Positions 135 through 50,669 of a stretch of 50,669 nt of DNA are shown here, piece after piece. Where the stretch lies: IMG/VR virus record IMGVR_UViG_3300028831_000214, positions 1 through 50,669 of that record; one strand, given 5' to 3'. The position numbers and the translations under genes are program-made. Every line of letters begins with the position of its first letter. Position 1 is the first letter of the stretch. The stretch is from a virus. The notes under the pieces are model-generated. The model had not been told where the DNA came from. It saw only the letters and a list, made by a program, of their open reading frames with translations, and did not search any database.

Positions 135-380
135 CTGGGTCTCCTGCGCCGCCGCCTGACGGTCCTCAGCGTCCTGCTCGGCAGCCGTCTTGGAGCTCTT
201 CTCGAGCTTCCAGCCCTCCTGCAGACCGCTCGCACGCGGGACGCCGTTCATGGCCTCCCATGACGTGATCTCGGTCTCGTTGAAGTGACGCGTCTCTCCC
301 GGCTTGAAGATGCCCAGGAAAGGAACCACGAGCTCCGGTACATCCTTGACGTTCGGAGCAGTGACCTTGTAGTACTGCAT
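72..380 (-). CDS. hypothetical virion protein between the neck genes and the major tail gene
   Basis: 102-aa ORF. Its TAA stop overlaps the ATG of the major tail gene (TAATG at 70-74, equivalent to 50605-50609). Lys/Glu-rich C-terminus. Call rests on synteny. Confidence 0.6.
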   Translation of the reverse strand: MQYYKVTAPNVKDVPELVVPFLGIFKPGETRHFNETEITSWEAMNGVPRASGLQEGWKLEKSSKTAAEQDAEDRQAAAQETQEKNVAALQELADKPGEEGDK

Positions 381-34929: not shown

Positions 34930-37315
34930 CTGTTCCGAGTGCCCTCTGAAGGACGAGAAGATGGCTCCCTCTGCCATTCCGGTAGGGGGAGCCACCCTCG
35001 CAGTCGTAGGAGAGGCACCAGGATTCCAGGAGGTTACCTACGGCAAGCCCTTCATGGGCCCTTCGGGTAAGCTCCTGAAGACGGTACTGAGGTACCACGG
35101 AATCGATCCTAAGGAGGTGATGTTCTCCAATGTTGTACTATGCCGTCCTGAAGGGAACGCAACTCCTCCTGCGACAGCGCAAGCTGCGTGTCGTGGACGT
35201 CTTGTTCGTGAACTGGACGAGTCCGGCGCACGAAGTGTCGTGGCACTTGGCGGGACCGCAGCTGGAGCTCTGGTTGACGATCCCCGAACTATCACACAGC
35301 TTCGCATCGGACCTCCGAAGCCTCCCACTCGAGCGCTCGATGGATCGAGTGTTGAAAGAGTTGTGCCGACGTGGCACCCCGCTTACTGTCTCCGAAATCC
35401 AGATGCGTTTCCTACCATGGCCGCGGACATCGAGAAGGTCACCTGGACGAAGGCCAAGGAGTGGAGAGAGCCGAACTGGAACTACTTCGACACTCCGCTA
35501 GAGGCTGTCGCGTTCCTTGACGAACTCTGGCAGTGGCAGAACTCGTCGGGCAGGTACGAGCTCGTCGTCGACATCGAGGTCGGTATCGAGAAGGATACCG
35601 CCTTCGACCACCCGAACCACTACCAGATGCTCTGCATCGGACTTGCATGGGAGAAGGGAGCTGCAGGTGTCATCGGAGATGGAGCTCTGGCGTCTGCGCA
35701 GGTTCTCGGACGTCTCGCTCGGATACTGTACCGTTCGAAACTCATTGCTCAGAACGGGAAATTTGACCTCGCCGGCCTTTGGCCTCTCTTTCCACGCCTG
35801 GAACTGTGGTTCGATACTATGCTCGCGCATTACGCTCTGGACGAACGTTCGGGCGGGCATGGACTTAAGGTCCTTGCAGTGGAACGACTCGGCGCTCCTC
35901 AGTATGACGACGAGATCAAGAAGTACATCCCGCGCGGAGGCAACTACGCCAACATCCCGAGGGAGATCCTCTACAAGTACAACGCGCTCGACGTCGCCTG
36001 CACCTGGGATCTCCATGAGCTCTTCACTATCGAGATGGACCGAGATCCGGTCGCTTCGGGAAGGCACGAGTGGCCTTACCCCGAACTCCCTGTACGAACT
36101 CTTCGGGACTGGCATGACTTCCTAGTCTCCGCCTCGAATGCCCTGATGTACCTGGAGCTCAACGGCATCGCTGTCGACGTGAACTACAACACGCAGCTGT
36201 CGTACGAGTACATCGCCAAGCTCGATGCCATGGAGAAGGGTCTCTCGGAGATCGTCAACGAGGCGACCAAGGGGGAGAAGCCGGCGATCAACCCTCGGAG
36301 CCCGAAGCAGGTGAAGGAGTTCCTTCACAGTCAGGGTATGCGAGTCGAGAAGACCGACAAGGAGGTGCTGAATGGTCTCGCGGAGAGACTACATCCGGAG
36401 AGCTACGCGGGAAGGTTTGTCAACGGGCTTCTGGACCATCGCTTCGAAGCGAAGCGTTACGGAACGTTCGTCAAAGGTATTCGTCAAAGGCTGTACGGTG
36501 GACGTGTCTTTACCAACTACCTCCTTCACGGTACCACGTCGGGACGACTGGCTTCACGTAACCCGAACCTTCAGAATATTGTTCGGGACAAGAATATCCG
36601 AAGGCAGTTTGTCGCCAGCAAGCCTGGCTATGTCCTCACCCAGGCGGATTACAAACAGGCTGAGGGCCGAGTCATTGCGTGGCTGGCTCAGGACGAGTTC
36701 CTTCGAAGCATCTTTGCAGACCCAGAGGCTGACCTCTTCAACACCCTGGGCGCCAGGCTCTACAACCTCCCACCAGGCGTAATTCCGAACAAGGAGCAGC
36801 GTGTTCGTGTCAAGGCGTACTTCTATGGCCTCAGCTACGGACGAGAGGCCTACAGCATCGCCAAGGAATACAAGCTCCCCGTGGCACAAGTTCAAAGAGA
36901 CCTGGAAGCGTTCTTCAAGACGATTCCCCAAGTCGCTGCTTGGCAAGAGTCCATCAAGCAGCGAGTCCTCGACGGTCACGATCTCATCTCGCCATTCGGT
37001 CGGCGTCGTCGGTTTGCTCTCATCACGGAGCAGACAAAGCAGGATGTCCTCAAGGAAGCACTCAGCTATCTGCCGCAGTCGATCGCTTCCGACATCTGCC
37101 TCACTGCCCTTACTCGTATTCGACCCAAGCTCCGTGGAATCGGTTTTGTCCGACTCACGATCCACGATGCACTGGTCGTCGAGCATCACGAGTCGAAACT
37201 GGACCTTGTGTCGGAGATGCTACGCACTGAGATGGTCCAAGCAGCTCGTGAGATAACTGAATACGTTCCGTTCGAAGTCGATGTGTCAACAGGGCACAGC
37301 TGGGGGGATCTGTAA
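34904..37315 (+). CDS. family A DNA polymerase with an N-terminal family-4 UDG-like domain and 3'-5' exonuclease
   Basis: 803 aa. UDG-4 motifs CSECPL, GEAPGFQE..PFMGPSGKLL, HPAYCLRNP. Exo motif VVDIEV. Pol motifs QADYKQAEGRV, KAYFYGLSYG, IHDALVVE. Confidence 0.9.
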   Translation: MESKAPGANCSECPLKDEKMAPSAIPVGGATLAVVGEAPGFQEVTYGKPFMGPSGKLLKTVLRYHGIDPKEVMFSNVVLCRPEGNATPPATAQAACRGRLVRELDESGARSVVALGGTAAGALVDDPRTITQLRIGPPKPPTRALDGSSVERVVPTWHPAYCLRNPDAFPTMAADIEKVTWTKAKEWREPNWNYFDTPLEAVAFLDELWQWQNSSGRYELVVDIEVGIEKDTAFDHPNHYQMLCIGLAWEKGAAGVIGDGALASAQVLGRLARILYRSKLIAQNGKFDLAGLWPLFPRLELWFDTMLAHYALDERSGGHGLKVLAVERLGAPQYDDEIKKYIPRGGNYANIPREILYKYNALDVACTWDLHELFTIEMDRDPVASGRHEWPYPELPVRTLRDWHDFLVSASNALMYLELNGIAVDVNYNTQLSYEYIAKLDAMEKGLSEIVNEATKGEKPAINPRSPKQVKEFLHSQGMRVEKTDKEVLNGLAERLHPESYAGRFVNGLLDHRFEAKRYGTFVKGIRQRLYGGRVFTNYLLHGTTSGRLASRNPNLQNIVRDKNIRRQFVASKPGYVLTQADYKQAEGRVIAWLAQDEFLRSIFADPEADLFNTLGARLYNLPPGVIPNKEQRVRVKAYFYGLSYGREAYSIAKEYKLPVAQVQRDLEAFFKTIPQVAAWQESIKQRVLDGHDLISPFGRRRRFALITEQTKQDVLKEALSYLPQSIASDICLTALTRIRPKLRGIGFVRLTIHDALVVEHHESKLDLVSEMLRTEMVQAAREITEYVPFEVDVSTGHSWGDL

Positions 37316-37549
37316 ATGAACCGTCAAGAGGCACTCATGTTGGCGGTCTCCACCGTCGAGGAGATGACGTCCAAGGTACCCACGAACAAGAATGGGTACC
37401 CGCTCGACGGCTTCAAGGCACCGACCTTCACCGAGAAGATCGAGGCCATCGAGAGACTGGCCAACTTCCTGTGGGAGCCCGAGCCGGAGATGGCTACGCT
37501 GGAGGAGGTGACTAGTGCCGCGAGGGAAGCCGAGTCCTATCGGGACTGA
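37316..37549 (+). CDS. hypothetical protein (77 aa)
   Basis: ATG lies 1 nt after the polymerase stop. Confidence 0.55.
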   Translation: MNRQEALMLAVSTVEEMTSKVPTNKNGYPLDGFKAPTFTEKIEAIERLANFLWEPEPEMATLEEVTSAAREAESYRD

Positions 37550-37829
37550 GATGGTCAACGCCAACGGCTACACTCAGGTCAGGACCGAGAGTGGCTGGAT
37601 CGCCAAGCACACGATGATCCTGGAGAAGAAGCTCGGCCGCAAGCTTCGCCCAGGCGAGCGAGCTACCTTCAAGGATGGCAACCGAGCCAACCTCGACCCG
37701 GAGAACATCGTCCTGACCGAGGGACACAAGAAGGAGTCCATCAAGGCCAGGATCGCCAGGTACGAGAAGGAGATCCAGGACCGGCAGGAATGGATCGCTG
37801 AGCTCAAACGAGAGCTAGCTAGCGATTAA
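37515..37829 (+). CDS. HNH-type endonuclease-like protein (first His of the motif replaced)
   Basis: 104 aa. NGYTQVRTESGWIAKHTMILEKKLGRKL..ERATFKDGNRANLDPENIVL follows the HNH_3 layout but has TF where HH is usual. Confidence 0.6.
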   Translation: MPRGKPSPIGTEMVNANGYTQVRTESGWIAKHTMILEKKLGRKLRPGERATFKDGNRANLDPENIVLTEGHKKESIKARIARYEKEIQDRQEWIAELKRELASD

Positions 37830-37841
37830 TTTCTAAGCGAT

Positions 37842-37938
37842 GTCTAATCGATTAGACGCGAGGTTAGACCAAAGGACGTACCGCCCGCCGTACATCTCTA
37901 GGGGCTTGAAAATCGCAAGGTCTATCTTGCGTCTAACC
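37842..37938. promoter_or_regulatory. second GTCTAA(CC) array including a perfect 16-bp palindrome
   Basis: Palindrome GTCTAATCGATTAGAC at 37842-37857. GGTTAGAC (inverted GTCTAACC) at 37862-37869. GCGTCTAACC at 37929-37938, the same 10-mer as 20345-20354. Confidence 0.55.
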
Positions 37939-37979
37939 GATTGCACTCGAACACAACACCACACGCACAAGGGGAGACA

Positions 37980-38156
37980 ATGCCTGTACAGCTCATAGTC
38001 GTTCATATGGACGATACGCGCAGCTATCACCCTGTCAGCCTGAGGAGGGGATGGAAGATCTGCCCCACGCGAAGGGAGATCATCGTTGGGGGAGGTCTTC
38101 CGCGGACGCACATCCCCCTCGACAACGTCAAGTACTACAACATCGAGGAGTACTGA
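37980..38156 (+). CDS. hypothetical protein (58 aa)
   Basis: ATG 37980 follows AAGGGGAGACA. Start moved from 37941. Confidence 0.5.
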   Translation: MPVQLIVVHMDDTRSYHPVSLRRGWKICPTRREIIVGGGLPRTHIPLDNVKYYNIEEY

Positions 38157-38587
38157 TGCAGGTAATCGTTGGAGAACGGAGGACCGGTCGGACGACCAAG
38201 CTGATCGACTGGCTGCTGCAGGGAAGGGAGCAGAACTCCTACCCGTACTGGTCCAGAGTGATCGTCTGCCCGACACACCAGATGGTCAGGCACACGACGT
38301 ACGCAGTGCTGAAGCGTATCGAGGAGGTGAAGTGGAACCTCTGCGAGCAGATGCTTCCGCACGTACACGGAGACACCGATCACCACCAGGCGGTGCTGAC
38401 GGACGTCAAGAAGGCCGTGTGGGGTTTGAACGACCTCATGTCCAACATCATGGGCTCACGCCCGTTCGAGTACGCCGTCGACGACTACGACATGATGATG
38501 AATCAGGTCGGCAGAGTCGCAAGCGGTGTACATCGGCCAGCACTCATCGTCATCGAGGGGAGTCTGTATGGCACTGATAGCAATTGA
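38156..38587 (+). CDS. hypothetical protein with a deviant P-loop (GERRTGRTT)
   Basis: TGATG coupling. 143 aa. Confidence 0.55.
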   Translation: MQVIVGERRTGRTTKLIDWLLQGREQNSYPYWSRVIVCPTHQMVRHTTYAVLKRIEEVKWNLCEQMLPHVHGDTDHHQAVLTDVKKAVWGLNDLMSNIMGSRPFEYAVDDYDMMMNQVGRVASGVHRPALIVIEGSLYGTDSN

Positions 38588-39050
38588 CCCCGGACCGCAC
38601 ACGGGCATCTTCGGCCAGCGACTGGGAGCGTTCTTCAGCACTACGTTGAACCTGGACGAGCTGTCCCAGAGTGCCCTAGTCATTCCGCCGCACCGCTACC
38701 TCTGGGACTGGCTCAACGATCACGTCCAGCCGACGTGTGATCAGATCATCCTGGAGAAGTTCGAGTTCCAGAAGGACAAGCGCGACAAGGAGAACCTCAA
38801 CTACGACGCCGGCGAGTACGTCGGGGTCGTCAAGATCTGGTGCGACCTCAACAAGGTCCCCTGTCACCTCCAGAGCCCAAGCCAGGTCGTCAGCAAGGAA
38901 GGCAAGACCTTCTGGACGGATGACAAGCTCAAGCGCGTGGGGTTGTGGAAGTCGCTACGGACGCGCCACGAGAGGGACGCTGCACGTCACTACCTCTACT
39001 ACGTCACCTTCACCCTGAACGACAAGACCTGGCTGGAGAAGCTGAAGTGA
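38568..39050 (+). CDS. RuvC-like Holliday junction resolvase
   Basis: ATG 38568. LIAIDPGPHTG N-terminal motif, an acidic residue in ILEKFEF, and C-terminal HERDAARH. Confidence 0.7.
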   Translation: MALIAIDPGPHTGIFGQRLGAFFSTTLNLDELSQSALVIPPHRYLWDWLNDHVQPTCDQIILEKFEFQKDKRDKENLNYDAGEYVGVVKIWCDLNKVPCHLQSPSQVVSKEGKTFWTDDKLKRVGLWKSLRTRHERDAARHYLYYVTFTLNDKTWLEKLK

Positions 39051-39223
39051 AGATCACTGTCCAGATCGACGGCGACGAGTACGGAGACGTCGAGCTCTCG
39101 AAGGAGGTGCGTGGCCCTTTCAGGATGGGTCATGTACATCTCGACCGCCGCAACGAAGCAGGAGAGGTACTAAAGGACCTGGCAGGACAAGCACAGCTCT
39201 GGCTGAACGTTAACGTCAAGTAG
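39047..39223 (+). CDS. hypothetical protein (58 aa), last gene of the plus arm
   Basis: GTGA coupling at 39047. Confidence 0.5.
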   Translation: MKITVQIDGDEYGDVELSKEVRGPFRMGHVHLDRRNEAGEVLKDLAGQAQLWLNVNVK

Positions 39224-39283
39224 AGTCCTGGCCTCCTACCGGAAGGATCACCCGAGGCGGTGACGGTAGGAGGCCAGGAGTCT
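39222..39283. terminator. bidirectional terminator hairpin between the convergent arms
   Basis: AGAGTCCTGGCCTCCTACCG (39222-39241) pairs with CGGTAGGAGGCCAGGAGTCT (39264-39283): 16 perfect bp, one mismatch, then 3 bp. The loop contains an inner TCACC/GGTGA stem. Confidence 0.75.
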
Positions 39284-39342
39284 AGATGGCGATGAAGCCG
39301 ATCACGATCGCTGCCACTATCCAGATGTGGAACATGACAGCA

Positions 39343-40290
39343 CTAACTGCCGATGTTGCCCCCCGCACCGGGGCCTCCGTAGTAGAACGAGCGCATCGAG
39401 GAGGTGAAGCCCACCCGGTACTCATTCGGATCCGTCTCCTGGACGGTCAGCGAGTGCGTCACGCCGGTCGGCGGGTTGATCAGCGTCCACGAGTTCACGT
39501 AGGCCGCGCTGAGGTTCGTGTTCACCGGGCAGCACAGCGACCGACCGAACTGACCGGTACCCATGTCTGCCGTGTTCGGTGCGTTGGGCACCTCGCCGAA
39601 CACCTGACCCAGGCCCATCTTCGTGAACGTCGCACCCTGGCTGGTCCACCGCGTGTTCGGGAAGTAGCCGATCCACTCGAAAGTGCCTGGCGTCGAGTCC
39701 ATCCCGACCCACCACACGTTGTCGAACTGCTGGATGCCGATACGCCACAGGACCGGCGTCGAGGGGTAGGACGCACTGGCGTTGATGTAGTCACCCAGGT
39801 GGTGAGTAGCCGCAGGGTCGGCCACGAAGCCGGTACCGTAGCCCTGCCAGACACCGTTGATCCAGTGGCCGGCGAAGAGCCACTGCTTCGGGTCACTAGT
39901 CCCCTTGCGGAAGCCGACCTCGACAGCCTGGCTGCCATCGGCCGACTGTACCGCGACCTCGACCAGCGAGTGAGTGACCGGAGTCGTCGGCACGAACGGG
40001 TTGGTGACCTGCACCTTGGCGCTCGCACCGTCGGAGCCGGCACCCGACACGTACTGGTACCCGCCGGCGTAGCTGTAGCCGTTGACCGTCTTGGTCGAGG
40101 CGCGACCGGGGACCCAGTGGCCCTTGGGCAGCATCGACTTGCTGTTCGCCTTCAGCGGCGCACTGCCGGCGACCTGCTTGCCGTCCGGGTTGGTCCGGAT
40201 GGGGGCACTGCCGGCCTGGGCCGATGCGGGGATGCTGAGCCCCATCAGAACGATGAGGGCCGCCAGGACCCTCGAGATGTAGTGCCTCAC
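39343..40290 (-). CDS. secreted neprosin/DUF239-like protein (putative glutamic peptidase; candidate exported lysis or surface-acting enzyme)
   Basis: 315 aa. Signal peptide MRHYISRVLAALIVLMGLSIPASA-QA. HSLVEVAV, VEVGF, GFV, NVWWVG, WIGYFP and VFGEV appear in the order I recall for the PF03080 family. Last gene of the lysis cassette. Confidence 0.55.
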   Translation of the reverse strand: MRHYISRVLAALIVLMGLSIPASAQAGSAPIRTNPDGKQVAGSAPLKANSKSMLPKGHWVPGRASTKTVNGYSYAGGYQYVSGAGSDGASAKVQVTNPFVPTTPVTHSLVEVAVQSADGSQAVEVGFRKGTSDPKQWLFAGHWINGVWQGYGTGFVADPAATHHLGDYINASASYPSTPVLWRIGIQQFDNVWWVGMDSTPGTFEWIGYFPNTRWTSQGATFTKMGLGQVFGEVPNAPNTADMGTGQFGRSLCCPVNTNLSAAYVNSWTLINPPTGVTHSLTVQETDPNEYRVGFTSSMRSFYYGGPGAGGNIGS

Positions 40291-40547
40291 TTGCCGGTCT
40301 CCTTCGTGGCGGTGATGTTCATCAGGTTGATGTCGGGATTCTTCTTGATCTGGTCGGTCAGGTCACCCGTGGTGAGTCGGTTTGCGGGCGACAACGCGAC
40401 GGCGGCGGGGCTGCCGATCAGCGCTCCCAGGATTCCCAGCCACTCGATCAGCGTCACCTTGTCGTCCGACAGCGCGGCGATCACCAACGGGATTGCCACG
40501 GCTATCCCGGCGAGTAGCGCCGTCAGCGCTTTGCTGTACCTTGCCAT
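40287..40547 (-). CDS. holin-like two-TM membrane protein
   Basis: 86 aa, with TAGGAGGACTGATCG RBS. TM segments ALTALLAGIAVAIPLVIAAL and WLGILGALIGSPAAVAL, polar charged tail. GTGA coupling to the downstream gene. Confidence 0.6.
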   Translation of the reverse strand: MARYSKALTALLAGIAVAIPLVIAALSDDKVTLIEWLGILGALIGSPAAVALSPANRLTTGDLTDQIKKNPDINLMNITATKETGK

Positions 40548-40791
40548 CGATCAGTCCTCCTAGTGATGCAAGCAGCTCCCACGTTAGGCCCTGCACGTTG
40601 TCATTCGGGAATGTTCCCTGAACCAGCTTCTGGATGGCCGTCTGCTGGTCGATCTTGTCAGACTCCTGAAGAGCCTGAACACGGGTGTAGGGGATGTTCA
40701 CCATCATCTTGGCGCCAGCGAAGTACTGCGCTTCCACGGTGATGTGATCCCCAGTGCGTGTGGCGTTTGAAATGGTCACGAGCGGCATCAT
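40363..40791 (-). CDS. hypothetical protein; the last ~60 codons overlap the holin-like gene out of frame
   Basis: The first ~80 aa look protein-like. After LASLGG the frame runs on through the holin RBS with Arg/Gly-rich shadow-like sequence. Confidence 0.45.
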   Translation of the reverse strand: MMPLVTISNATRTGDHITVEAQYFAGAKMMVNIPYTRVQALQESDKIDQQTAIQKLVQGTFPNDNVQGLTWELLASLGGLIDGKVQQSADGATRRDSRGNPVGDRRAVGRQGDADRVAGNPGSADRQPRRRRVVARKPTHHG

Positions 40792-41498
40792 CGCCTCCAG
40801 ACCTGAAAGTTCACCGTGTGCGCCAATGCATCACCCCAGCGGATTTCGAAGCCCGATGCGGTTGAGGATTTGATGCAGTGGTAGAACGTTGCGTCGGCAC
40901 CCGTGATCGAGTACGTCAGCAGTGGTACTGCGGGGTAGGTCCAGTCGTAGTTCCAGATCACACCACCGAAGCCTGCGACAACGTCGATGGTGCCCATGTA
41001 CAGAGCGTTCCAGCTGGAGTACTGGTCGTCGCTCATCCACTTACCACGGAAGAGGAAGTGGTTCGGGTAGGAGCCGGACGCTGACAGTCCGATGTAGGTC
41101 TCCTCACCTGAAGCTGGCTGGTGAGAGAGGAACACGTACTCACGCGTCATCAGGAGCTTGCCGCCATCGCCAGCACCATCAGAGTCGCGGACTATGTAGG
41201 TCTGGAACGAGGTGTTACCGCTGCTGCCAGAGAACGCGACCGAACGTGCACGGACACTGTCGGTAGCGTCGGCAGCACGGAAGAGCATGCTCGGCTCTTC
41301 ACCATGTGTCAGCTTGATGCGTTCGTTGTCCTGCTCGTCCCGGATACTCAGGTCACCATTCCTGATGACGAGAGTACCGTTGTCGACCGAAGACGAGCCC
41401 AGACGACGTCCCGTCTCCATGACGCCAAGTCGACTGTTAACCGACTTGAGCATGTCCAGCAGATCGGGATTCTGCCGGTAAGTCTTGAGCCTGCTCAT
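40788..41498 (-). CDS. minor tail protein
   Basis: 236-aa ORF, ATGA coupling on both sides, within the tail module. Confidence 0.6.
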   Translation of the reverse strand: MSRLKTYRQNPDLLDMLKSVNSRLGVMETGRRLGSSSVDNGTLVIRNGDLSIRDEQDNERIKLTHGEEPSMLFRAADATDSVRARSVAFSGSSGNTSFQTYIVRDSDGAGDGGKLLMTREYVFLSHQPASGEETYIGLSASGSYPNHFLFRGKWMSDDQYSSWNALYMGTIDVVAGFGGVIWNYDWTYPAVPLLTYSITGADATFYHCIKSSTASGFEIRWGDALAHTVNFQVWRR

Positions 41499-42577
41499 TC
41501 AGCATCCTCCCCTTCGAAGGTCAGACGAACCTCTTCTGTTGCATCACTCGACGGTGGGGTGTACTCGTACTGCAGGATACGAGTTGGATGTACCAGACCT
41601 TGAGGGTGCATCGGGTCGTTGAATGCCAACTTGCAGTAGTCACCGATCACCCACTCGCTGAACTGCGGCGTGCGGTCTGCCTTCAGCTCCACAGTGTAGA
41701 CAGGCATTGGCGCCTTGCGTACTTGTGCCTGTACCTGCCCAAGTCCTTCGAGCTCGAGTTCGCTCTGGATGTCCTTGAGAGGTACATCCTGGTCTAGACG
41801 TATGAAGCCTGCGTCCAGCAGATCCTGGTGTACGATCTCGACCTGTGGCATCGAGTCGCCCTCACCAGCACCGATGGCATAGATGTTAGTACCCGAGCCA
41901 CCAAGTGTATCGTTCTGCCAGTAGTTCAGGATGTTACCAGGGTACTCGAACACTACGCTGGCATCATTCAAGGGCTGGCCTAGCGTCGGGTAACCTAGCT
42001 CGACGACCCAGCTGTACGCACCGGTCTGCTTGGTGACGCCTACACGCCACTCGAAACCGATATCGGTCACCGACAGGTTGTCGACTATCTCTCGGTAGCT
42101 GCGGAGCTCCGAGCCAGCGATGTCGTAGTTGATGGCGACGTCGGTTGCGAACGCTGCTGGCAAATCCCACTGCGGGGAGTTAGGATCCAGCATCATCAGC
42201 TCGAGTAGTGCCAGGAAGATGTTACGGCGATCGACACCAGTGAACGAGACGTCCTCGTCGATGAACCGCTTTGTCAGGTACTGGTCCATCGTCTTGGAGT
42301 ACAGCTGAGCCGTCTTCGCCTGGCTCTGGTAGGTCCGCGACCAGTTCAAGCCACCCCAGATGGGAACGCCATTGCGTTCCACAACGACGAAGGTCTTGCC
42401 TGGAATGGTCGCGGCTACCAGATCAGCGTTGTTCTTGCCTGTAGTGTCTAGAGCGAAGTTGCCCCGAAACTCGCCACCGTCGAGGCTGTCGTTGATGCTC
42501 ACACCGTAGCAAGGGATCTCCTCGATCACCTCGCCGGTGAGGACATCCCCGAAGATGTAGCGAATCTCAGAGCCCAT
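41495..42577 (-). CDS. Tal-like minor tail protein (siphovirus tail-tip N-terminal domain type)
   Basis: 360 aa. The N-terminus IFGDVLTGEVIEEIPCYGVSINDSLDGGEFRGNFALD resembles actinophage tail-tip proteins (memory). Confidence 0.55.
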   Translation of the reverse strand: MGSEIRYIFGDVLTGEVIEEIPCYGVSINDSLDGGEFRGNFALDTTGKNNADLVAATIPGKTFVVVERNGVPIWGGLNWSRTYQSQAKTAQLYSKTMDQYLTKRFIDEDVSFTGVDRRNIFLALLELMMLDPNSPQWDLPAAFATDVAINYDIAGSELRSYREIVDNLSVTDIGFEWRVGVTKQTGAYSWVVELGYPTLGQPLNDASVVFEYPGNILNYWQNDTLGGSGTNIYAIGAGEGDSMPQVEIVHQDLLDAGFIRLDQDVPLKDIQSELELEGLGQVQAQVRKAPMPVYTVELKADRTPQFSEWVIGDYCKLAFNDPMHPQGLVHPTRILQYEYTPPSSDATEEVRLTFEGEDAE

Positions 42578-42583
42578 GTCGCC

Positions 42584-43318
42584 CTACTTCTTGGTCTCGG
42601 TCGGGACCAGCTTCTCGAGCATGGCCTCGATCCGCAGCTGACGCTTGTAGCTGTCGGCGAAGTAGGCCAGGAAGTTCGACCCCTCCGGCAGACCACCCGG
42701 AAGACCGCCACCGTTGTAGTTCAGCGGGGCCGCCCCGACGAGCGCCTCGGCCGGCTTGCCCTCGGCGAAGGCCTTCGCCAGCGCGGTCTCGAACTCGGTC
42801 TGGTTGTCGATGAATCCCATGAAGTCCTCCACGAAGAGAGTGATGAACGGACGGGTGTCACGCTCACAGCTGGTCTCGTAGCGACCGGAGAAGTGGGCGT
42901 GGTTGGTGTGCGGGTCGTCGAGCGTGTACGGTTCCGGCTCGAAGTCGTTGTCGATGTGGTAGATCTTGCGGTCCCAGATGACGTACCGCAGACGGCACTT
43001 GTCATCCTTGCTGAGCCACTTCTTCTTCTCGCCCGCGATGATGTTCATCACGATGGCGTGGAAGCGCTGCTTCTGAGTGCCACTGCCCGGCCACGGACCC
43101 GACGAGTCGATGTCCAACGCGTGGACCTCGTTGTTGCTGTCGGCATCCTTACCACGCAGCTTGTCGCTGTCTTCGTCCGGCGTGTGGTCGGAGCCCGAGT
43201 CGTGCGAGCTGTCGCCGATCGTTCCGTCAGCACCCTTGTCACGATTGGGACTGATGTAGTTGACCTCGCTACGCAGCGCGAGCAGGCAGTCGATGGTTAC
43301 CCATGCACTCATGTTCAC
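42584..43318 (-). CDS. tail-module protein with His/Asp metal-site motifs (possible LAS/M15-like cell-wall peptidase)
   Basis: 244 aa. DGTIGDSSHDSGSDHTPDEDSD, EVHALDID and HTNHAH resemble the H-x6-7-D...HxH zinc peptidase layout (tentative). Confidence 0.4.
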   Translation of the reverse strand: MNMSAWVTIDCLLALRSEVNYISPNRDKGADGTIGDSSHDSGSDHTPDEDSDKLRGKDADSNNEVHALDIDSSGPWPGSGTQKQRFHAIVMNIIAGEKKKWLSKDDKCRLRYVIWDRKIYHIDNDFEPEPYTLDDPHTNHAHFSGRYETSCERDTRPFITLFVEDFMGFIDNQTEFETALAKAFAEGKPAEALVGAAPLNYNGGGLPGGLPEGSNFLAYFADSYKRQLRIEAMLEKLVPTETKK

Positions 43319-43321
43319 CTC

Positions 43322-44623
43322 CTAGATGTAGAGATCCAAGATGATCGCCCCGGGAGCAGCATCGGCCCCGAGTCGCTGTGATTCGCTAGGGTTGGTGGTT
43401 GAACCGCCACCACCGCCACCGTAGCCCTTACCGTTCTCACCGACAGCGCCACGACCTGGCGCACCGCCGGAGCCCATGAAGGACGAGCCGCCCATACCAC
43501 CGAGTGTCTGACCGGCAGCAGATCCGAGTCGCGATGCCATACCGCCACCCTGACCACCGATCTGAATGTCGCCGGTCATTGCCTGCGAGCCCTGAGCAGC
43601 AGCCGCAGTGAATGCGGTAGCACCCGTAACGACCGTCTGGCCGCCGACACCGCCGACAGCTGAGACGTGCGCACCGAAGGACGTCGTACCGCCCGAGCCA
43701 CCCGTACCGCCAGCCACGCCAGCACCGGCAGCACCAATGGTACAGGTCACAGATGCCGCCAAGGCTGAAGCATCGATGAAGGACTCAGCATACGAGCCTC
43801 CCTGACCGCCACCGCCTGCAGATACCTGACCCGCAGGGTTAGTCGCAGCACCGCCGCCAGCACCTCCGCCACCCTGGCAGCACACGCGGACCTTCTTCAG
43901 ACCCGGGTAGGTTGCCTTCGTGAACGACGATGTGGCAGTGATCACGAGGCGCTGGAAGAAGGACACACCACGAGGGTTCGTCCAGCTCGTACCGTTGTAG
44001 GACGCGAGGCCGTCGTACTGCATGTCGTAGACGACCATGCCCTCGATGGCCGGCGTAGGGTAGTCTGCCGAGCTACGGCAAACGATGATCCCGTAGGAGC
44101 TGTACGGACGAACGTCGGTGATGTTCGCCGTCAGGATCTGAGTGACCGCTGCAGCAACAGCCACCTGAGCCAGGATGATCGAGTTCGCCGGCGCAGCAGG
44201 CACCGTAGGCGAGCCGGCAGGAGTACCAGTCACAACGGCGAGCTGCCAAGCATTCGTCGCACCGCTGTAGGCCGAGTCCTGCACCTGTGCGACGATGATG
44301 TCGATACGTGGCAGAGACGCGTGAGCGGCAGAGATGATGAGGTTGGTAGTGCTCGGTGCAACACAGGTGTAGACCGCCTGCGTGGTACCCTCCGTGCCCG
44401 GCACAAAGGCAACACCCGTACCAACGTTCACCGACATGTTCGGCGAGCCATTCTGGGTGACAGCCATCACTGCACCTAGGTGAGGGTGAACGCCGCCCCT
44501 ATTGACGAGCGACGAAGCGATGCGAGGACCCGACAGACCGTTGTTGGCGGACTGCCGAGTGATCTCCGCGTTGTGCGTAGCCCCAGCGTTCTGCAGGAAG
44601 CCAGGGGGATTGTTTACTGCCAT
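43322..44623 (-). CDS. glycine-rich tail fibre / receptor-binding minor tail protein
   Basis: 433 aa. The N-terminal domain is typical of actinophage minor tail proteins. The C-terminal half is GGxGG-rich. Confidence 0.65.
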   Translation of the reverse strand: MAVNNPPGFLQNAGATHNAEITRQSANNGLSGPRIASSLVNRGGVHPHLGAVMAVTQNGSPNMSVNVGTGVAFVPGTEGTTQAVYTCVAPSTTNLIISAAHASLPRIDIIVAQVQDSAYSGATNAWQLAVVTGTPAGSPTVPAAPANSIILAQVAVAAAVTQILTANITDVRPYSSYGIIVCRSSADYPTPAIEGMVVYDMQYDGLASYNGTSWTNPRGVSFFQRLVITATSSFTKATYPGLKKVRVCCQGGGGAGGGAATNPAGQVSAGGGGQGGSYAESFIDASALAASVTCTIGAAGAGVAGGTGGSGGTTSFGAHVSAVGGVGGQTVVTGATAFTAAAAQGSQAMTGDIQIGGQGGGMASRLGSAAGQTLGGMGGSSFMGSGGAPGRGAVGENGKGYGGGGGGSTTNPSESQRLGADAAPGAIILDLYI

Positions 44624-44625
44624 GG

Positions 44626-45501
44626 TTACCTCCAGGCGTTCCGGTAGGTCACAGATGCTGCCGGGTTGCCAGTTGTGTCTGCGCGGTACTGAAGGAAGTT
44701 GTCTCCCGGATCAAGGTAGAACCAGTCCGCCTTGGTCATCGTACCTCTTCGTGAGGCAGTGCCGTTGAGCGTTACTGTCCTGTAGTAGCTATCGATCACC
44801 AGTGTGTCCGACGCTCCAAGGACGATGGAGAAGATCATCTCCTTGGACTGACCTGCATGGTAGATGCGAGGGTTAGTTACCGGTCCAGGGATGGTGATCG
44901 TTACGGGCGTTGGACGGTTGCCTGCATTGTACGCGTTCGTGGTGGTCGGGTCTACAGCAGCACCGAAGCCGAAGTCGAAGCCGAAGTTGAACCCGAAGCC
45001 AGTCATCGCACTGATGCCCTGGTTGATCGGGAGCGTCTGTGCAGTACTGTCGAAGATCATCGGGTTCTCTGCCTGACACATGAACTGGGCGTCCACGCTG
45101 CCAATGCGGCGGAGTTCGGCAATGTCGTACTTGACACCCAACGGCTTGACGAAGATCACTCGCTCGTCGATGTCCGGGTGCTGAAAGTAGAAGGGCTTCA
45201 GTAGTCGGCTAGGCGACCACTCTCCCTTCAGCTGATCCAGGAACGATTCCGTACCGACATGGTTGGTGATGATCTGGCCCTCGAGGACCAAGGTTCGCAT
45301 CTTCTCGAACTCGGCATCGATGAAGCCACCGTCCACGCCTTCGTGGTCACGCTCGGTCGTACGGAACTCGGGTGAGTCCAGACCCTTGACGCTCGTGATG
45401 TCCACGAAGGGCACAGTCATGTCATCCGGGTTGAGAACTGTACCCGTATCGCCTAGACGGTACTCGAAGTTGTTCATTACATCTGCCCTGCCAATTCCCA
45501 A
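44626..45501 (-). CDS. distal tail protein (Dit)
   Basis: 291 aa, immediately after the tape measure gene and overlapping it by 25 nt. Confidence 0.7.
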   Translation of the reverse strand: MGIGRADVMNNFEYRLGDTGTVLNPDDMTVPFVDITSVKGLDSPEFRTTERDHEGVDGGFIDAEFEKMRTLVLEGQIITNHVGTESFLDQLKGEWSPSRLLKPFYFQHPDIDERVIFVKPLGVKYDIAELRRIGSVDAQFMCQAENPMIFDSTAQTLPINQGISAMTGFGFNFGFDFGFGAAVDPTTTNAYNAGNRPTPVTITIPGPVTNPRIYHAGQSKEMIFSIVLGASDTLVIDSYYRTVTLNGTASRRGTMTKADWFYLDPGDNFLQYRADTTGNPAASVTYRNAWR

Positions 45502-48500
45502 CCCAGATCAGCGGACGTCTTGCGAGGATCGATCTCCTGCGTGTTGACAGTGATGTTGTTGTTGATGACCTTGTGTGGAGTTCCGTCGGCGTACGGCATT
45601 GCCGCGTACGGTCCATTGAGCGGTGCGGCAGGTGTAAACATGGAAGCCATCGCCATACGGTTCTTTGCAGCGTTCATGTCAGCCATGTACCCGTTGATGT
45701 AGCCGAGAGCGGTGTTGGAACCGAGTGCAGCAAACACCGTCGACGGCGAGTGGATACCCAACTGCTTCTTGATCGCTGCAACAAGGGCATTGGCGATGTT
45801 GGTCATCTCGGCCGTGATCTTCTTGATCTGGCTCGACAGACCATCCATCAGGCCCTTGGCAGCATCGATGCCCGCCTTGTACAGGCTGTCAGCGATCGTA
45901 CTTCCCATACTGCCAGAGATCTCACGGATCTGCTGCTGCACCGAACTGATCTGGTTCAGGTCCTGCTGGCTAGCATTGGCCAACGTGTGCGCGAGAGCAC
46001 CACCGGCTTCGACACCCTGCGTCGCAAGGTCCGCAATGGTCTGCTTGTCGAAGCCGCGAGCCTGAAGCTTCAGCAAGTCTGCCTGGAACGTCTTGAGTGC
46101 CATCAGGCGATCCTTCAGGCCTGCAGCGATACCTCCAGCGGTCTGCTTCTGCACATCGGTCAGGGTGGTCAGGTCGTTGGCGTCCTGAAGCGACTCAGCG
46201 ATCTTCTGCTGCAGGTCGTTACGTGCCTTGAGCTGGTCGTTGTAGGACTTGGTCGCGTCTGCCAAACGGTTCTGCAGCTTCGTACGCTTCGCATCGAGTG
46301 CCAGCAGCTTGCGCTCGTTCTTGTCGATCAGACGGTTCCACGCCTTACTGAGCTTTGCACGCTCCCTCTTGCTGATACCTGCACCGGCAATCGATCGCTG
46401 GATGTCACGCTTCAGAGCGAACATCGTGTCACGGATCTTCTTGGCATTGACCTTGACGCCCTCGATGAAGCCTCGGACGACGTTGGCACCGATGTCCTTG
46501 AAGTGACGTGACGGCGAGTGGATACCCAAAGCGTCCTTGGCAGCACCCAATGCAGCCTTAGCAAGGTTGGCCGCCTCAGCCGCAGCGGCACCAATCTTCT
46601 CGCGGATACCTGCGATCAGACCGTTAACAATATCCCGGCCAGCATTGATGAGCCAGGAGCTAGCACCCTTGAAGGCACCCTTGACGGAGTCGATCGCACT
46701 CTTTACTGTCGTCTTCACTGTCGCCATAGCGGACGAGGCCTTGCTACCCAGGTCCTTGAAGAAGCCGATGATCGCCTTGATGGCGGCAATGCCGATGTTG
46801 ATCTGAGTACGTACGTAGGTGTACGCGGTGCGGAAGATGTTCACCAGCGTACGCCCCATGACAACAGTAGCACGTGCCGACGCAGCCAGAGCTGCGATAA
46901 GAACACCTACGATGACGCCTGCAAGAGCTGCGCCGCCGATCATCATCTGTGCCAGGAACCTAATGACTGGGAGGATAGCATCCTTGTTCTGCTTGAACCA
47001 GTCAACGACATCAGAGATGGCAGGCACGAGGTAGTTCTGGATGGCATCTGCAGCCATCTTCAGTGCAGGCTGCAAGCTAGCAGCGAATACGGCTCCGGCC
47101 TGCTGGATGATCGGAACCAAGTTGGTCCTGCACCAGTCGATGAACTCCTTGGCTGCAGGGAGCACCTTCGTCTCGATGACGTTCCAGAGAGCAGTAAAGG
47201 CGGGACCCATTGTGGTACTGATCGCACTACCGACAGTACTCGCTGCAGTCTTTATTGCCCCCCAAAGTGCACCCAGCGTATCACCTATCGAGGATACGAC
47301 AGCACGGAAGGCTGCACTCTTCTGGTACGCAACGATGAAGGCCGCACCCAGCGCAGTGATTACCAGAATCACTCCGGCGACAATCGCTGCGACAGAAGCG
47401 AATGCAGCGATCATGGGAGCCAGTGCAGGGCCTGCGATGGTGATAACACCGAGCAGGCCGACGATGGCACCCAGTATGACAGTGATCACGCCGATCACAA
47501 TCGACAGTACCGCACCCCAGAGCAGGAACTGTGCAATGGTGTTCTTAGCACCTGGCGAGAGCTTGTTGAACCAGTCGAGGATCTGCTGCAGCTTACCCAC
47601 CAACATCGTGAACGTCGGCAGTAGTGCAGTACCGATACTGACCTTGAGTGTCATCCAGGCGTTCTTCAAGAGCTGCGTCTTAGCCGAGACGGAGTTTGCC
47701 ATCTCGTCATAAGCCTTCTGGAAGGCACCCTTGTCGGTAGCGAACTCCTTAATCTGATCCTGGAAGAGTTCCAGACCACCCTTGGTCAGCAGGATGCCCT
47801 GCAGGAAGCGGCGAGCCTCGATAGTAGAACCTGCGCCCTTAAGGACGTCGAGGATCTCTGCGACACGTTCCTTTGGTGGAAGACTATCCAGCTGCTTACG
47901 CCAGTCCGTCAACACATCCACGAGTGGCCTGAAGTTACCCTTAGCATCACGCGTCTTAACGCCGATCTCGGCCAGGGCCTTCTCAGTCTTGGGATTCGAC
48001 ATTGCATCGAATGCACGAGCGACCGCAGTACCACCTCGAGCAGCACTGACACCCATACGAGTGACAGTGGCGAGTGCTGCTGCCATCGTCTCGAAGGACT
48101 GTCCTGCACGGACAGCAGAAGGTGTGACCAGACCGATGCGCTGTGCCCACTCCTCGTAGGTACCGACACCCTCCTGGACCAGCTGGAACTGGATGTCCAA
48201 GACCTTGTTGACATCCTCGAAGGGAATCTTGTAGGCGTTCATCACACCAATGGTAGCGCGCGAGGCAGTCTGGATATCAGTCTGCCCTGCTACAGCCGCC
48301 TTGGAGAACGAACGCAGGAGTGCCTCAGCCTGTGGCAGGTTTGCCTCGGTCGAGGAGAAGACGTCGAACAGTGCCGTCTGAACCTCTTCGAATGGAACAG
48401 CGATGTCCTTGGCGACACGAAGGCCGATCTCACCGAGTTCCTTCAGGCTAGGCTTGAAGCGCTTGTCGACCTGCGTATAGGTCAGACGCACCTGCTTGTC

Positions 48501-48893
48501 CCAGTCGGACGCTGCCTGCACAGCGTCGCCCAGACCTGCAATGGTTGCAACGCCCAGACCGATCATTGCAACGCCGGCAATCTCCGTTATGCGTGCAACG
48601 TTCTGCATGGCATGACCGAGATTGTTCTGCCGCTTACGTACGTACTCGACCTTCTTGGCCTGGTCGTCGAGGGCCTTTGCCTCGTTGCGAAGAGCTGCGA
48701 CCTGTGCCTGCGTAGCACCAGCCTGTAGGGCTTGCGCAGCCATCTGACGTCGCTGTGCTGCCTGCGCACGGAGGCTAGCAGCTTCCGCTGCCGCCCCCGC
48801 CTTGCGCATCGACTGTGCTACGTTGTTGATCGCCCTGGAAGCATCTTCCTTGGTACGGATCAGTAGGAGGATATCCCTAACGCTTGCTGGCAC
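45477..48893 (-). CDS. tape measure protein
   Basis: 1138 aa, GTG start. Ala-rich helical repeats and a central multi-TM block. Follows the G/G-T chaperones. Confidence 0.95.
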   Translation of the reverse strand: MPASVRDILLLIRTKEDASRAINNVAQSMRKAGAAAEAASLRAQAAQRRQMAAQALQAGATQAQVAALRNEAKALDDQAKKVEYVRKRQNNLGHAMQNVARITEIAGVAMIGLGVATIAGLGDAVQAASDWDKQVRLTYTQVDKRFKPSLKELGEIGLRVAKDIAVPFEEVQTALFDVFSSTEANLPQAEALLRSFSKAAVAGQTDIQTASRATIGVMNAYKIPFEDVNKVLDIQFQLVQEGVGTYEEWAQRIGLVTPSAVRAGQSFETMAAALATVTRMGVSAARGGTAVARAFDAMSNPKTEKALAEIGVKTRDAKGNFRPLVDVLTDWRKQLDSLPPKERVAEILDVLKGAGSTIEARRFLQGILLTKGGLELFQDQIKEFATDKGAFQKAYDEMANSVSAKTQLLKNAWMTLKVSIGTALLPTFTMLVGKLQQILDWFNKLSPGAKNTIAQFLLWGAVLSIVIGVITVILGAIVGLLGVITIAGPALAPMIAAFASVAAIVAGVILVITALGAAFIVAYQKSAAFRAVVSSIGDTLGALWGAIKTAASTVGSAISTTMGPAFTALWNVIETKVLPAAKEFIDWCRTNLVPIIQQAGAVFAASLQPALKMAADAIQNYLVPAISDVVDWFKQNKDAILPVIRFLAQMMIGGAALAGVIVGVLIAALAASARATVVMGRTLVNIFRTAYTYVRTQINIGIAAIKAIIGFFKDLGSKASSAMATVKTTVKSAIDSVKGAFKGASSWLINAGRDIVNGLIAGIREKIGAAAAEAANLAKAALGAAKDALGIHSPSRHFKDIGANVVRGFIEGVKVNAKKIRDTMFALKRDIQRSIAGAGISKRERAKLSKAWNRLIDKNERKLLALDAKRTKLQNRLADATKSYNDQLKARNDLQQKIAESLQDANDLTTLTDVQKQTAGGIAAGLKDRLMALKTFQADLLKLQARGFDKQTIADLATQGVEAGGALAHTLANASQQDLNQISSVQQQIREISGSMGSTIADSLYKAGIDAAKGLMDGLSSQIKKITAEMTNIANALVAAIKKQLGIHSPSTVFAALGSNTALGYINGYMADMNAAKNRMAMASMFTPAAPLNGPYAAMPYADGTPHKVINNNITVNTQEIDPRKTSADLGWELAGQM

Positions 48894-49668: not shown

Positions 49669-50607
49669 CTACGTCAGCTGGGCGTGGGTCTCCTGCGTCT
49701 GCACGGTCAGCGTGTACGCTGCCGTGGCGGGCCCGATCAGGCACTGGTACTCGATCGACGCTCGCACGACGTCGCCCTGCGAGCTGAGGCTGACCTCGTA
49801 GGTGTCCTTGAGAGACACCGGCGTCAGGATGGTGATCTTGTTGTTCGTGCCCTTGGTGGCCACGAGCGTGATCGACTGCGCCGTCATCGCCTTGAAGGCG
49901 TCGTAGTCGGTACGGTCCTGGAAGTCACGCTCGAGCGACAGGGTTACCTCTCGCTCACCGAACGCGATGAACTGTGCACCGCGACTCGGGTTCTTGAGGC
50001 GGTAGTTCGGCTCGGCGTTGTCCTCGACCTGGAACTCGAAGGTGTCCGTGTCGAGCACCGACGAGCTCGTCGGGATCTGGATGTCGTACTGACCCATGCC
50101 GTACGGGGTCGTGGTCGGCCAGGTCACCGTCGGGTTGGACTGCGTCGCCTCGTCGTTGCCGACGATGCTGACGTTGTAGGTCAGCGTGCCGTCGTCGATG
50201 CCGAAGGTGAACGAGCCGACCACGCAGCCGGAGTACCCGAAGACCACGCCGTTGCGCACGATGGTGATCGACATCGTCTTGGCCGGCGTCGCGTTCGCGT
50301 TCGGCGTACCCGTGTAGGTGAGGTTCGTCGTACCGCTCTTCACCACCGTCATGCGACTGGCGTACATGAACCAGACGACCACGTCTTCCGTAGCGTCCAT
50401 CTCGATGTCGCCCTCGACGTGCGCGTTGCCCGGCACGGCGTAGTTCACGTCTGGCGAGTTACGGATGGCTCGGCGGAAGTTGGTCTCCTGCTGGTACATC
50501 AGGGACTCGCTGTTGAATGGGACGAACTTGACGGGCGCCAGGTAGGTCCCCGAGACTGCCTCGAGGGCCACGCCCAGTACGCCACTCGCGCCGACACCGA
50601 TTGCCAT
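49669..50607 (-). CDS. major tail (tube) protein
   Basis: 312 aa, directly upstream of the chaperones and tape measure, followed by an attenuator-like hairpin. Its 5' end lies in the terminal repeat. Confidence 0.8.
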   Translation of the reverse strand: MAIGVGASGVLGVALEAVSGTYLAPVKFVPFNSESLMYQQETNFRRAIRNSPDVNYAVPGNAHVEGDIEMDATEDVVVWFMYASRMTVVKSGTTNLTYTGTPNANATPAKTMSITIVRNGVVFGYSGCVVGSFTFGIDDGTLTYNVSIVGNDEATQSNPTVTWPTTTPYGMGQYDIQIPTSSSVLDTDTFEFQVEDNAEPNYRLKNPSRGAQFIAFGEREVTLSLERDFQDRTDYDAFKAMTAQSITLVATKGTNNKITILTPVSLKDTYEVSLSSQGDVVRASIEYQCLIGPATAAYTLTVQTQETHAQLT

Positions 50608-50669
50608 TACTTGTCACCCTCCTCTCCCGGCTTGTCGGCCAGCTCCTGCAGAGCGGCCACGTTCTTCTC
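50536..50669. repeat. terminal direct repeat copy 2 (identical to 1-134)
   Basis: Same as copy 1. Confidence 0.9.

Follow-up and report, generated by a model that had tools for sequence, protein, structure and literature searches.

The window analysed here is the 50,669-nt stretch of viral DNA held as IMG/VR record IMGVR_UViG_3300028831_000214 (positions 1 to 50,669). The late operon of this phage ends with a gene for a 315-amino-acid (aa) protein of the neprosin family, and this protein is probably a late, Sec-exported accessory peptidase of the two-glutamate (G3) type and not the principal endolysin. A preliminary description of the window, made from the sequence alone, had suggested a new class of exported endolysin standing in for a missing one. 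This suggestion was not borne out. A second protein of the same genome (244 aa) belongs to a family that is holin-linked in other phages and carries LAS-type motifs, with weak LAS-type fold matches. Moreover, neprosin-like genes in other phages vary in position and are unlinked to holins, and one phage (L007) carries both genes in separate operons.

The neprosin family (PF03080) had been named in the preliminary description, and the name proved correct at the level of profiles and structure. A word-indexed search of 5.8 billion proteins gave nine homologues of the 315-aa protein at 34–61% identity, which were aligned with it (alignment A1, ten proteins). Seven of the ten matched PF03080 (best E 3.7e-23), and the A1 profile matched the sequences of the neprosin crystal structures (PDB chains) at E 2.5e-13. 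With hhalign, a 21-sequence alignment (A6) matched mature neprosin with a probability of 97.6% (E 2.7e-12). The AlphaFold2 (AF2) model of the protein had a predicted local distance difference test score (pLDDT) of 79 and a predicted template-modelling score of 0.81. In a Foldseek search of the PDB with this model, ranks 1–5 were all neprosin (E 1.4e-10 to 1.3e-9, target-normalised template-modelling score up to 0.69). The neprosin entries compared were 7ZU8, 7ZVA, 7ZVB and 7ZVC (Nepenthes). The next match was the G1 scytalidoglutamic peptidase (E 1.6e-5, ~10% identity). No match to the 315-aa protein was found in PHROGs and NCBIfam, and a fold search of BFVD gave generic jelly-roll matches only, including the strawberry mottle virus polyprotein, which contains a MEROPS G3 peptidase. 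The protein is a divergent, PF03080-related member of the neprosin family that is visible at the profile and structure level only.

Weaker Foldseek matches were GH16 glucanases, xyloglucanases and galectins (E 4e-4 to 3e-3). Together with the replacement of several neprosin support residues (listed below), they raise the option of a non-catalytic or non-peptidase beta-sandwich, e.g. a lectin-like binder or a two-glutamate glycoside hydrolase acting on wall polysaccharide. We regard this as highly improbable: the GH16 and lectin matches are weaker than the neprosin ones by a factor of about a million, the sequence homology to PF03080 is significant, and both glutamates are invariant and aligned exactly with the neprosin dyad.

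The catalytic dyad of neprosin, E188 and E297, was shown by mutagenesis (PMC9343461). In the 315-aa protein, E124 and E233 align with it in sequence, and the spacing between the two glutamates is 109 residues in both proteins. An AlphaFold model and a check for the two catalytic glutamates had been proposed; the model matched neprosin in fold, and the glutamates matched it in the alignments. E124, E233 and H107 were invariant in 21 of 21 sequences. Of the active-site support residues of neprosin, Y136 and Y220 are kept as Y74 and Y151, and four others are replaced (see below). Both proteins share a beta-sandwich catalytic domain, the WW...W-GY-P and GGPG motifs and secretion (predicted in the case of the 315-aa protein). 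They differ in that the identity is only ~20%, His107 of the phage family is absent in neprosin, and the 315-aa protein is phage-encoded with a bacterial Sec signal peptide. The post-proline specificity of neprosin cannot be assumed for it.

In-silico work had placed neprosin in a proposed new family of glutamic peptidases with a relation to MEROPS G3. The eqolisins (MEROPS G1; scytalidoglutamic peptidase, 2IFR and 1S2B) share the overall beta-sandwich fold, and one of their catalytic residues is a glutamate at the corresponding position. However, their dyad is Gln-Glu and not Glu-Glu, and the structural match is far weaker.

Pfam gave no match to the Neprosin_AP pro-domain (PF14365) in the 315-aa protein, and the stretch from the signal peptide to the catalytic domain is only ~45 residues long. 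Residues 25–70 include a beta-hairpin modelled with confidence, a lysine at ~67 and a conserved PKG motif, which is aligned with the linker of neprosin. By analogy with the neprosin zymogen, this segment may act as a mini-propeptide.

The features described earlier for the protein and its surroundings were all present, i.e. the gene layout and coordinates, the two-transmembrane (TM) holin-like gene, the GTGA coupling and a 17-aa mini-ORF (open reading frame). The GTG start of the 315-aa gene overlaps the TGA stop of the holin-like gene (GTGA). The motifs reported for the protein were likewise found in the same order: HSLVEVAV (residues 107–114), VEVGF (123–127), GFV, WWVG (193–196), IGYFP (207–211) and FGEV (231–234). 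The predicted signal peptide with its ASA-QA site was recovered by inspection and a hydropathy scan. Its sequence, MRHYISRVLAALIVLMGLSIPASA|QA, shows the n/h/c arrangement typical of Sec signals and an AxA site, i.e. a basic n-region and a hydrophobic h-region, with neither a lipobox nor a twin-arginine motif. An equivalent hydrophobic N-terminus was seen in 10 of 10 proteins of A1. The protein is predicted to be single-domain, and no known cell-wall-binding domain was detected in it. The G+C content at third codon positions (GC3) of the gene is 0.89, similar to other strongly biased phage genes (capsid, tail-tube).

The best endolysin candidate of the genome is the 244-aa protein, whose gene stands 2.3 kb upstream of the 315-aa gene. 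It had been noted before as a tentative metallopeptidase and the only other wall-hydrolase candidate. The family comprises 378 homologues and corresponds to PHROG 32486 ('unknown function'), with no Pfam family. Conservation was 60–79% in the N-terminal 158 residues, and the C-terminal part was variable. The C-terminal halves are coiled-coil in some members and collagen-like in Pas66. In 40 sequences of the family, H66-x4-D71 and H140-x-H142 were invariant; H-x(3-6)-D together with H-x-H is the signature of LAS/M15 zinc peptidases (PMC11667670). The AF2 model had a pLDDT of 76. Its best Foldseek match was the LAS L,D-endopeptidase VldE (probability 0.96, but E 0.069), followed by MepA without statistical support (E>1, probability 0.05), and there was no match at E≤1e-3. 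The fold evidence for LAS is weak because the best match has an E of 0.069 and the next one an E above 1.

Homologues of the 244-aa protein were located at L013:9007-9891 (Pas66 of Actinoplanes phage phiAsp2), L014:8001-8768 and L007:6134-6958. In phiAsp2, Pas66 is encoded directly upstream of an annotated holin. Three metagenomic phage contigs (L014, L015 and P0047) encode the homologue after their tail genes and ahead of a PF23778 holin and a 4-TM protein. The homologues probably form an endolysin family of Actinoplanes-type phages that has not been described before, and peptidoglycan is most likely cleaved by the 244-aa LAS-like zinc peptidase together with the two-TM holin-like protein.

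The lysis cassettes of related phages (L007:4831-6958, minus strand; L014:8001-10091, plus strand) have a fixed layout of five genes: the LAS-like enzyme, a 126–131-aa protein with an N-terminal TM segment and a coiled coil, a 67–75-aa highly charged protein, the 3-TM PF23778 holin and the 4-TM protein. The window phage does not have this layout and encodes one 2-TM protein only.

Neprosin-like genes were found in seven other phage contigs at varied positions (L001, L004, L005, L006, L007, L016 and P0012). L001, L005 and the P0012 contig have the gene among early/replication (helicase) genes, and in L016 it stands alone between opposite-strand genes. In L006, the gene follows a lysozyme-like SLT_3 gene. 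In L004 (60% identical), it stands before terS and is flanked by small TM ORFs. Both families occur in the L007/L008 phage, where the LAS-like gene (E 1e-23 to that of the window) stands inside a full holin cassette and the neprosin-like gene on the opposite strand in a different operon. Linkage of a neprosin-like gene to a holin-like gene was seen in the window only and was not conserved in the seven other contigs.

These comparisons bear on the possibility that the 315-aa protein is the true endolysin or an essential lysis enzyme, which would gather in the wall after Sec export and cut peptidoglycan peptides or wall-anchoring proteins after the holin has collapsed the membrane potential. The gene is the last of the late operon, and the membrane-protein and lysozyme-like neighbours in L004 and L006 would fit. 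So would the lack of canonical lysin domains: a Pfam scan of 71 ORFs of the genome turned up none of the amidase, lysozyme, M23, CHAP, NlpC/P60 and transglycosylase domains, which bears out the earlier statement on the first four. Sec-exported phage endolysins are an established class, e.g. Lys44 of Oenococcus phage fOg44. Endolysins of the Lys44 type are likewise late phage proteins that carry a cleavable Sec signal and have a holin-like gene as a neighbour. However, they have recognised peptidoglycan-hydrolase domains and the 315-aa protein does not, and the window genome holds another endolysin candidate, which is the better one in view of the holin linkage of its family. The 315-aa protein was assigned to no recognised peptidoglycan-hydrolase class by Pfam, PHROG and NCBIfam, and its fold matches peptidases and glucanases and not lysins. 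The varying gene position, the complete LAS-like and holin cassette in L007 and the missing wall-binding domain speak against an endolysin as well. Characterised neprosin-family members act at acidic pH on proline-rich protein substrates and, to our knowledge, no glutamic peptidase is known to cleave peptidoglycan. Taken together, a true endolysin is distinctly unlikely.

Several points nevertheless weigh against an accessory role next to a separate endolysin. The 315-aa gene occupies the classic endolysin slot of the window and is start/stop-coupled to the only holin-like gene, and the TM ORFs of L004 and the lysozyme-like gene of L006 keep a lysis-related role alive. The LAS assignment is statistically weak (E 0.069), and the 244-aa family gave no peptidase match in PDB searches (phmmer and profile) or in Pfam searches of 40 members. 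Because its gene stands among tail genes in the window, the 244-aa protein could be a virion-associated entry lysin, which would leave the endolysin role open. As to the family assignment, the 315-aa protein alone matched no Pfam family even at E≤10 (hmmscan), meaning that the Pfam check foreseen in the preliminary description succeeded for most of its aligned relatives and failed for the protein itself. Finally, support residues of the neprosin active site are replaced (H134 by Y72, Q173 by E111, W175 by A113 and Y214 by V147). Peptidase activity and specificity are only putative because of these replacements.

A lysis effector of a new class would be a further reading. Here, the Sec-exported glutamic peptidase would be prepositioned in the wall, act with the holin-like protein and be needed for timely release; in a variant, it would cleave the ectodomain of an anti-sigma factor of the extracytoplasmic function (ECF) type or a surface receptor. 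The substrate in the lysis reading would be peptidoglycan peptides or a proteinaceous envelope layer. We consider this reading, including its substrates, quite unlikely. If true, it would give the first glutamic-peptidase lysin.

The secreted accessory protease had been mentioned in the preliminary description as an alternative, in the form of a secreted moron acting on host surface proteins, and it fits the evidence better than the endolysin. Only the form of a lysogenic-conversion moron was rejected, since Pfam detected neither an integrase nor a recombinase domain in the genome. For the same reason, the window phage is probably virulent.

In the accessory reading, the 315-aa protein would be made late, as the last cistron of the tail/holin operon and from the same transcript. 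It would be exported via Sec, with the signal peptide cut after A24 (ASA|QA), and would then work beyond the membrane (wall zone or medium) as a two-glutamate endopeptidase with a protein or peptide as its substrate. The analysis itself establishes the homology and fold, the conserved glutamate dyad, the export-signal features, the place in the operon and the recurrence in phages; from these, peptidase activity, late secretion and the accessory role are inferred. A candidate role is the trimming of envelope or surface proteins, which would help release or stop progeny from re-adsorbing to debris (receptor destruction). Other candidate substrates are wall peptides and, from the synteny in host genomes, an anti-sigma ectodomain. 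Mycobacteriophage Lysin B is an accessory lysis enzyme, a cutinase-like esterase that is not Sec-exported and acts on mycolyl-arabinogalactan. It offers a possible functional analogy, i.e. a second enzyme of the lytic cycle near the lysis genes with an envelope target other than peptidoglycan, and there is no homology.

Chromosomal relatives numbered 215 in a genome scan; they came almost exclusively from Actinoplanes, Paractinoplanes and other Micromonosporaceae, often with two copies per genome. These proteins have the same architecture as the window protein (signal peptide, short N-terminal segment, PF03080 domain) and are 33–41% identical to it. One chromosomal relative scored 100.7 bits against PF03080 (cutoff 22). 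Among 75 chromosomal loci (L017–L096), 42 had an ECF sigma factor immediately downstream and 38 a zf-HC2 anti-sigma factor downstream, in both cases on the same strand. Measured from the neprosin-like gene, the sigma and anti-sigma genes lie at about +0.75 and +1.4 kb. At 49 of the 75 loci, a cysteine-dioxygenase-type cupin was encoded upstream on the opposite strand. The sigma-factor neighbourhood suggests that the chromosomal secreted peptidase is functionally tied to envelope signalling.

In a rough neighbour-joining tree, the chromosomal copies formed one clade and the phage copies at least two deep, separate clades. Since the phage copies stand apart from the chromosomal clade in this way, long-term retention of neprosin-like genes in phages is suggested. 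A recent horizontal pick-up was rejected on account of the deep distinct phage clades and a GC3 that fits other biased phage genes. A prophage origin of the Actinoplanes copies was also rejected, as no protein of the window phage matches their flanks.

From the chromosomal loci, a secreted host-manipulating effector can be envisaged, derived from an Actinoplanes-type envelope-signalling protease and cleaving an anti-sigma ectodomain or a surface receptor. It would give superinfection exclusion, receptor destruction or changed ECF signalling. The frequent sigma and anti-sigma neighbours are in line with this, as are the several phage copies among early genes and the deep phage clades, which suggest long use by phages. 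On the other hand, synteny is a correlation, and the host gene could be a mere target of the sigma factor. Moreover, the window gene is expressed together with the late genes, at a stage when little time is left to reprogram transcription, and the identity of the window protein to the chromosomal copies is low. Such an effector is therefore unlikely, and we prefer the accessory peptidase.

Neprosin-type glutamic peptidases have been characterised in plants only, and the structural paper on neprosin restricted likely orthologues to plants. In 2022, Pfam held ~50 bacterial neprosin sequences. An exhaustive hidden Markov model search now gave 2,443 representative clusters (50% identity) at E≤1e-3, 714 of them at E≤1e-30; judged by these sequences, the short-form neprosin branch in bacteria and phages is large. 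No counterpart was found when three divergent family members were searched by tblastn against 50,697 deposited phage genomes, PHROGs and BFVD held no true counterpart of the 315-aa protein, and a profile scan of genome contigs with the alignment of the closest relatives gave no close relative. The literature searched contained no paper joining neprosin with phage biology. The catalytic family is already known; what is new here is the phage-borne form with a putative short propeptide and predicted Sec export.

The findings add a sizeable bacterial and phage branch to the neprosins, concentrated in Actinoplanes-type actinomycetes and recurring in at least eight phage contigs and two deep phage clades. 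A secreted phage protease of an unusual catalytic type could point to a new interaction between phage and host envelope. Such proteins are also a possible source of acid-stable peptidases or peptidases of novel specificity, which would be of biotechnological interest. As a by-product, a probable endolysin function is obtained for the unannotated PHROG 32486 and Pas66 of phiAsp2.

The ends of the window overlap exactly by 134 bp (1–134 = 50536–50669). Therefore, the window is a complete, circularly assembled phage genome of ~50.5 kb. Its G+C content is ~60%. The minus strand carries the structural and late genes, which run downwards from ~9.3 kb and, across the window origin, on to 39.3 kb; the plus strand carries the early and replication genes (9.9 to 39.05 kb). 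The portal protein is ~30% identical to those of Gordonia, Rhodococcus, Mycobacterium and Arthrobacter phages. A 10-kb stretch (36000–46000) had no DNA-level match to deposited phages in megablast. By its sequence, the phage stands for a new lineage of actinophages. The Actinoplanes italicus genome encodes a homologue of the 244-aa protein and, because of this homologue and the link to phiAsp2, the data point to a host in the Micromonosporaceae. The early region at 18.9–39.05 kb (plus strand) encodes a protein with Radical_SAM and Fer4_12 domains (E 5.5e-8 and 1.7e-7), and also DNA polymerase A, an SNF2 helicase, a uracil-DNA glycosylase, a PD-(D/E)XK nuclease and a RepB-type primase. The features of the late operon are collected in Table 1.

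Table 1. Features at the end of the late operon and key codons of the 315-aa gene
Feature	Position	Strand	Remark
Tape-measure protein	45477-48893	-	Late operon
Dit	44626-45501	-	Late operon
Gly-rich fibre protein, 433 aa	43322-44623	-	Late operon
Candidate endolysin, 244 aa, putative LAS/M15-like zinc peptidoglycan peptidase	42584-43318	-	Motifs, weak fold match, holin linkage of homologues in other phages
Minor tail protein	41495-42577	-	PHROG 1885, E 7e-39
236-aa protein	40788-41498	-	Late operon
ORF1, ~80 coding codons	40551-40791	-	Frame runs on to 40363, overlapping the holin-like gene; ATGA coupling with the preceding gene
Two-TM holin-like protein, 86 aa	40287-40547	-	Translationally coupled to the peptidase gene
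Neprosin-family protein, 315 aa, putative glutamic peptidase	39343-40290	-	Last gene of the late operon
Predicted signal peptide, residues 1-24	40219-40290	-	Cleavage ASA|QA
Codon for H107	39970-39972	-	Aligned with neprosin F169, a residue lining the S3 subsite
Codon for E124	39919-39921	-	Aligns with neprosin catalytic E188 (HMMER and hhalign)
Codon for E233	39592-39594	-	Aligns with neprosin catalytic E297 (hhalign)
Hydrophobic micro-ORF	39282-39368	-	17 aa from ATG at 39335, or 28 aa from GTG at 39368
Hairpin closing the late operon	39221-39284	-	Directly after the mini-ORF, between convergent transcription units

The N-terminal region of the 433-aa fibre protein matches 'head/virion structural' PHROGs, and its C-terminal region matches Gly_rich_2 (PF21722), which is typical of tail fibres. 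Its gene stands before the LAS-like gene, i.e. in the middle of the tail module, which is an unusual site for an enzyme gene.

The 86-aa protein has hydrophobic segments at about residues 7–26 and 33–52 and a charged C-terminus, and a strong Shine-Dalgarno sequence (GGAGGA) lies 7 nt 5' of its ORF. It is the only small multi-TM ORF of the late operon. Searches of Pfam, PHROG and NCBIfam gave no match, thus no homology to a described holin family was found. The protein has the features of class II holins, i.e. small size, two TM segments, a charged C-terminus and a place beside lysis genes.

ORF1 had been given as 80–142 aa. The shorter version is supported, as the G+C content by codon position was coding-like in codons 1–80, and the longer one is not, as codons 81–142 showed a non-coding pattern. 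These last 62 codons are Arg-rich and overlap the holin-like gene out of frame, with the first stop of ORF1 185 nt inside that gene. Shortly before the holin ATG, the holin frame contains TAG and TGA stops. The extension of ORF1 could be a true overlap with the next gene, or it could reflect an indel in the assembly or a site of frameshifting.

The hairpin at the end of the operon was missed by a simple terminator scan because it has no U-tract. Its folding energy was -50.8 kcal/mol (z = -6.9), and none of 200 shuffled sequences was equally stable.

The 17-aa mini-ORF (39335 to 39282) reads MFHIWIVAAIVIGFIAI, and the GC3 of the micro-ORF is 0.89. The window (MRGATSAVSAVMFHIWIVAAIVIGFIAI) and the phage contig L004 (MRASPAAVMLHVWIAAAVAVGVAAALAG; 251–337, plus strand) encode look-alike copies of a conserved hydrophobic micro-protein. 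The motif was seen nowhere else in the ~210 kb of window and locus sequence scanned. In both phages, the micro-protein adjoins the neprosin-like gene, downstream of it in the window and upstream of it in L004, where the micro-ORF is GTGA-coupled to a 65-aa TM ORF.

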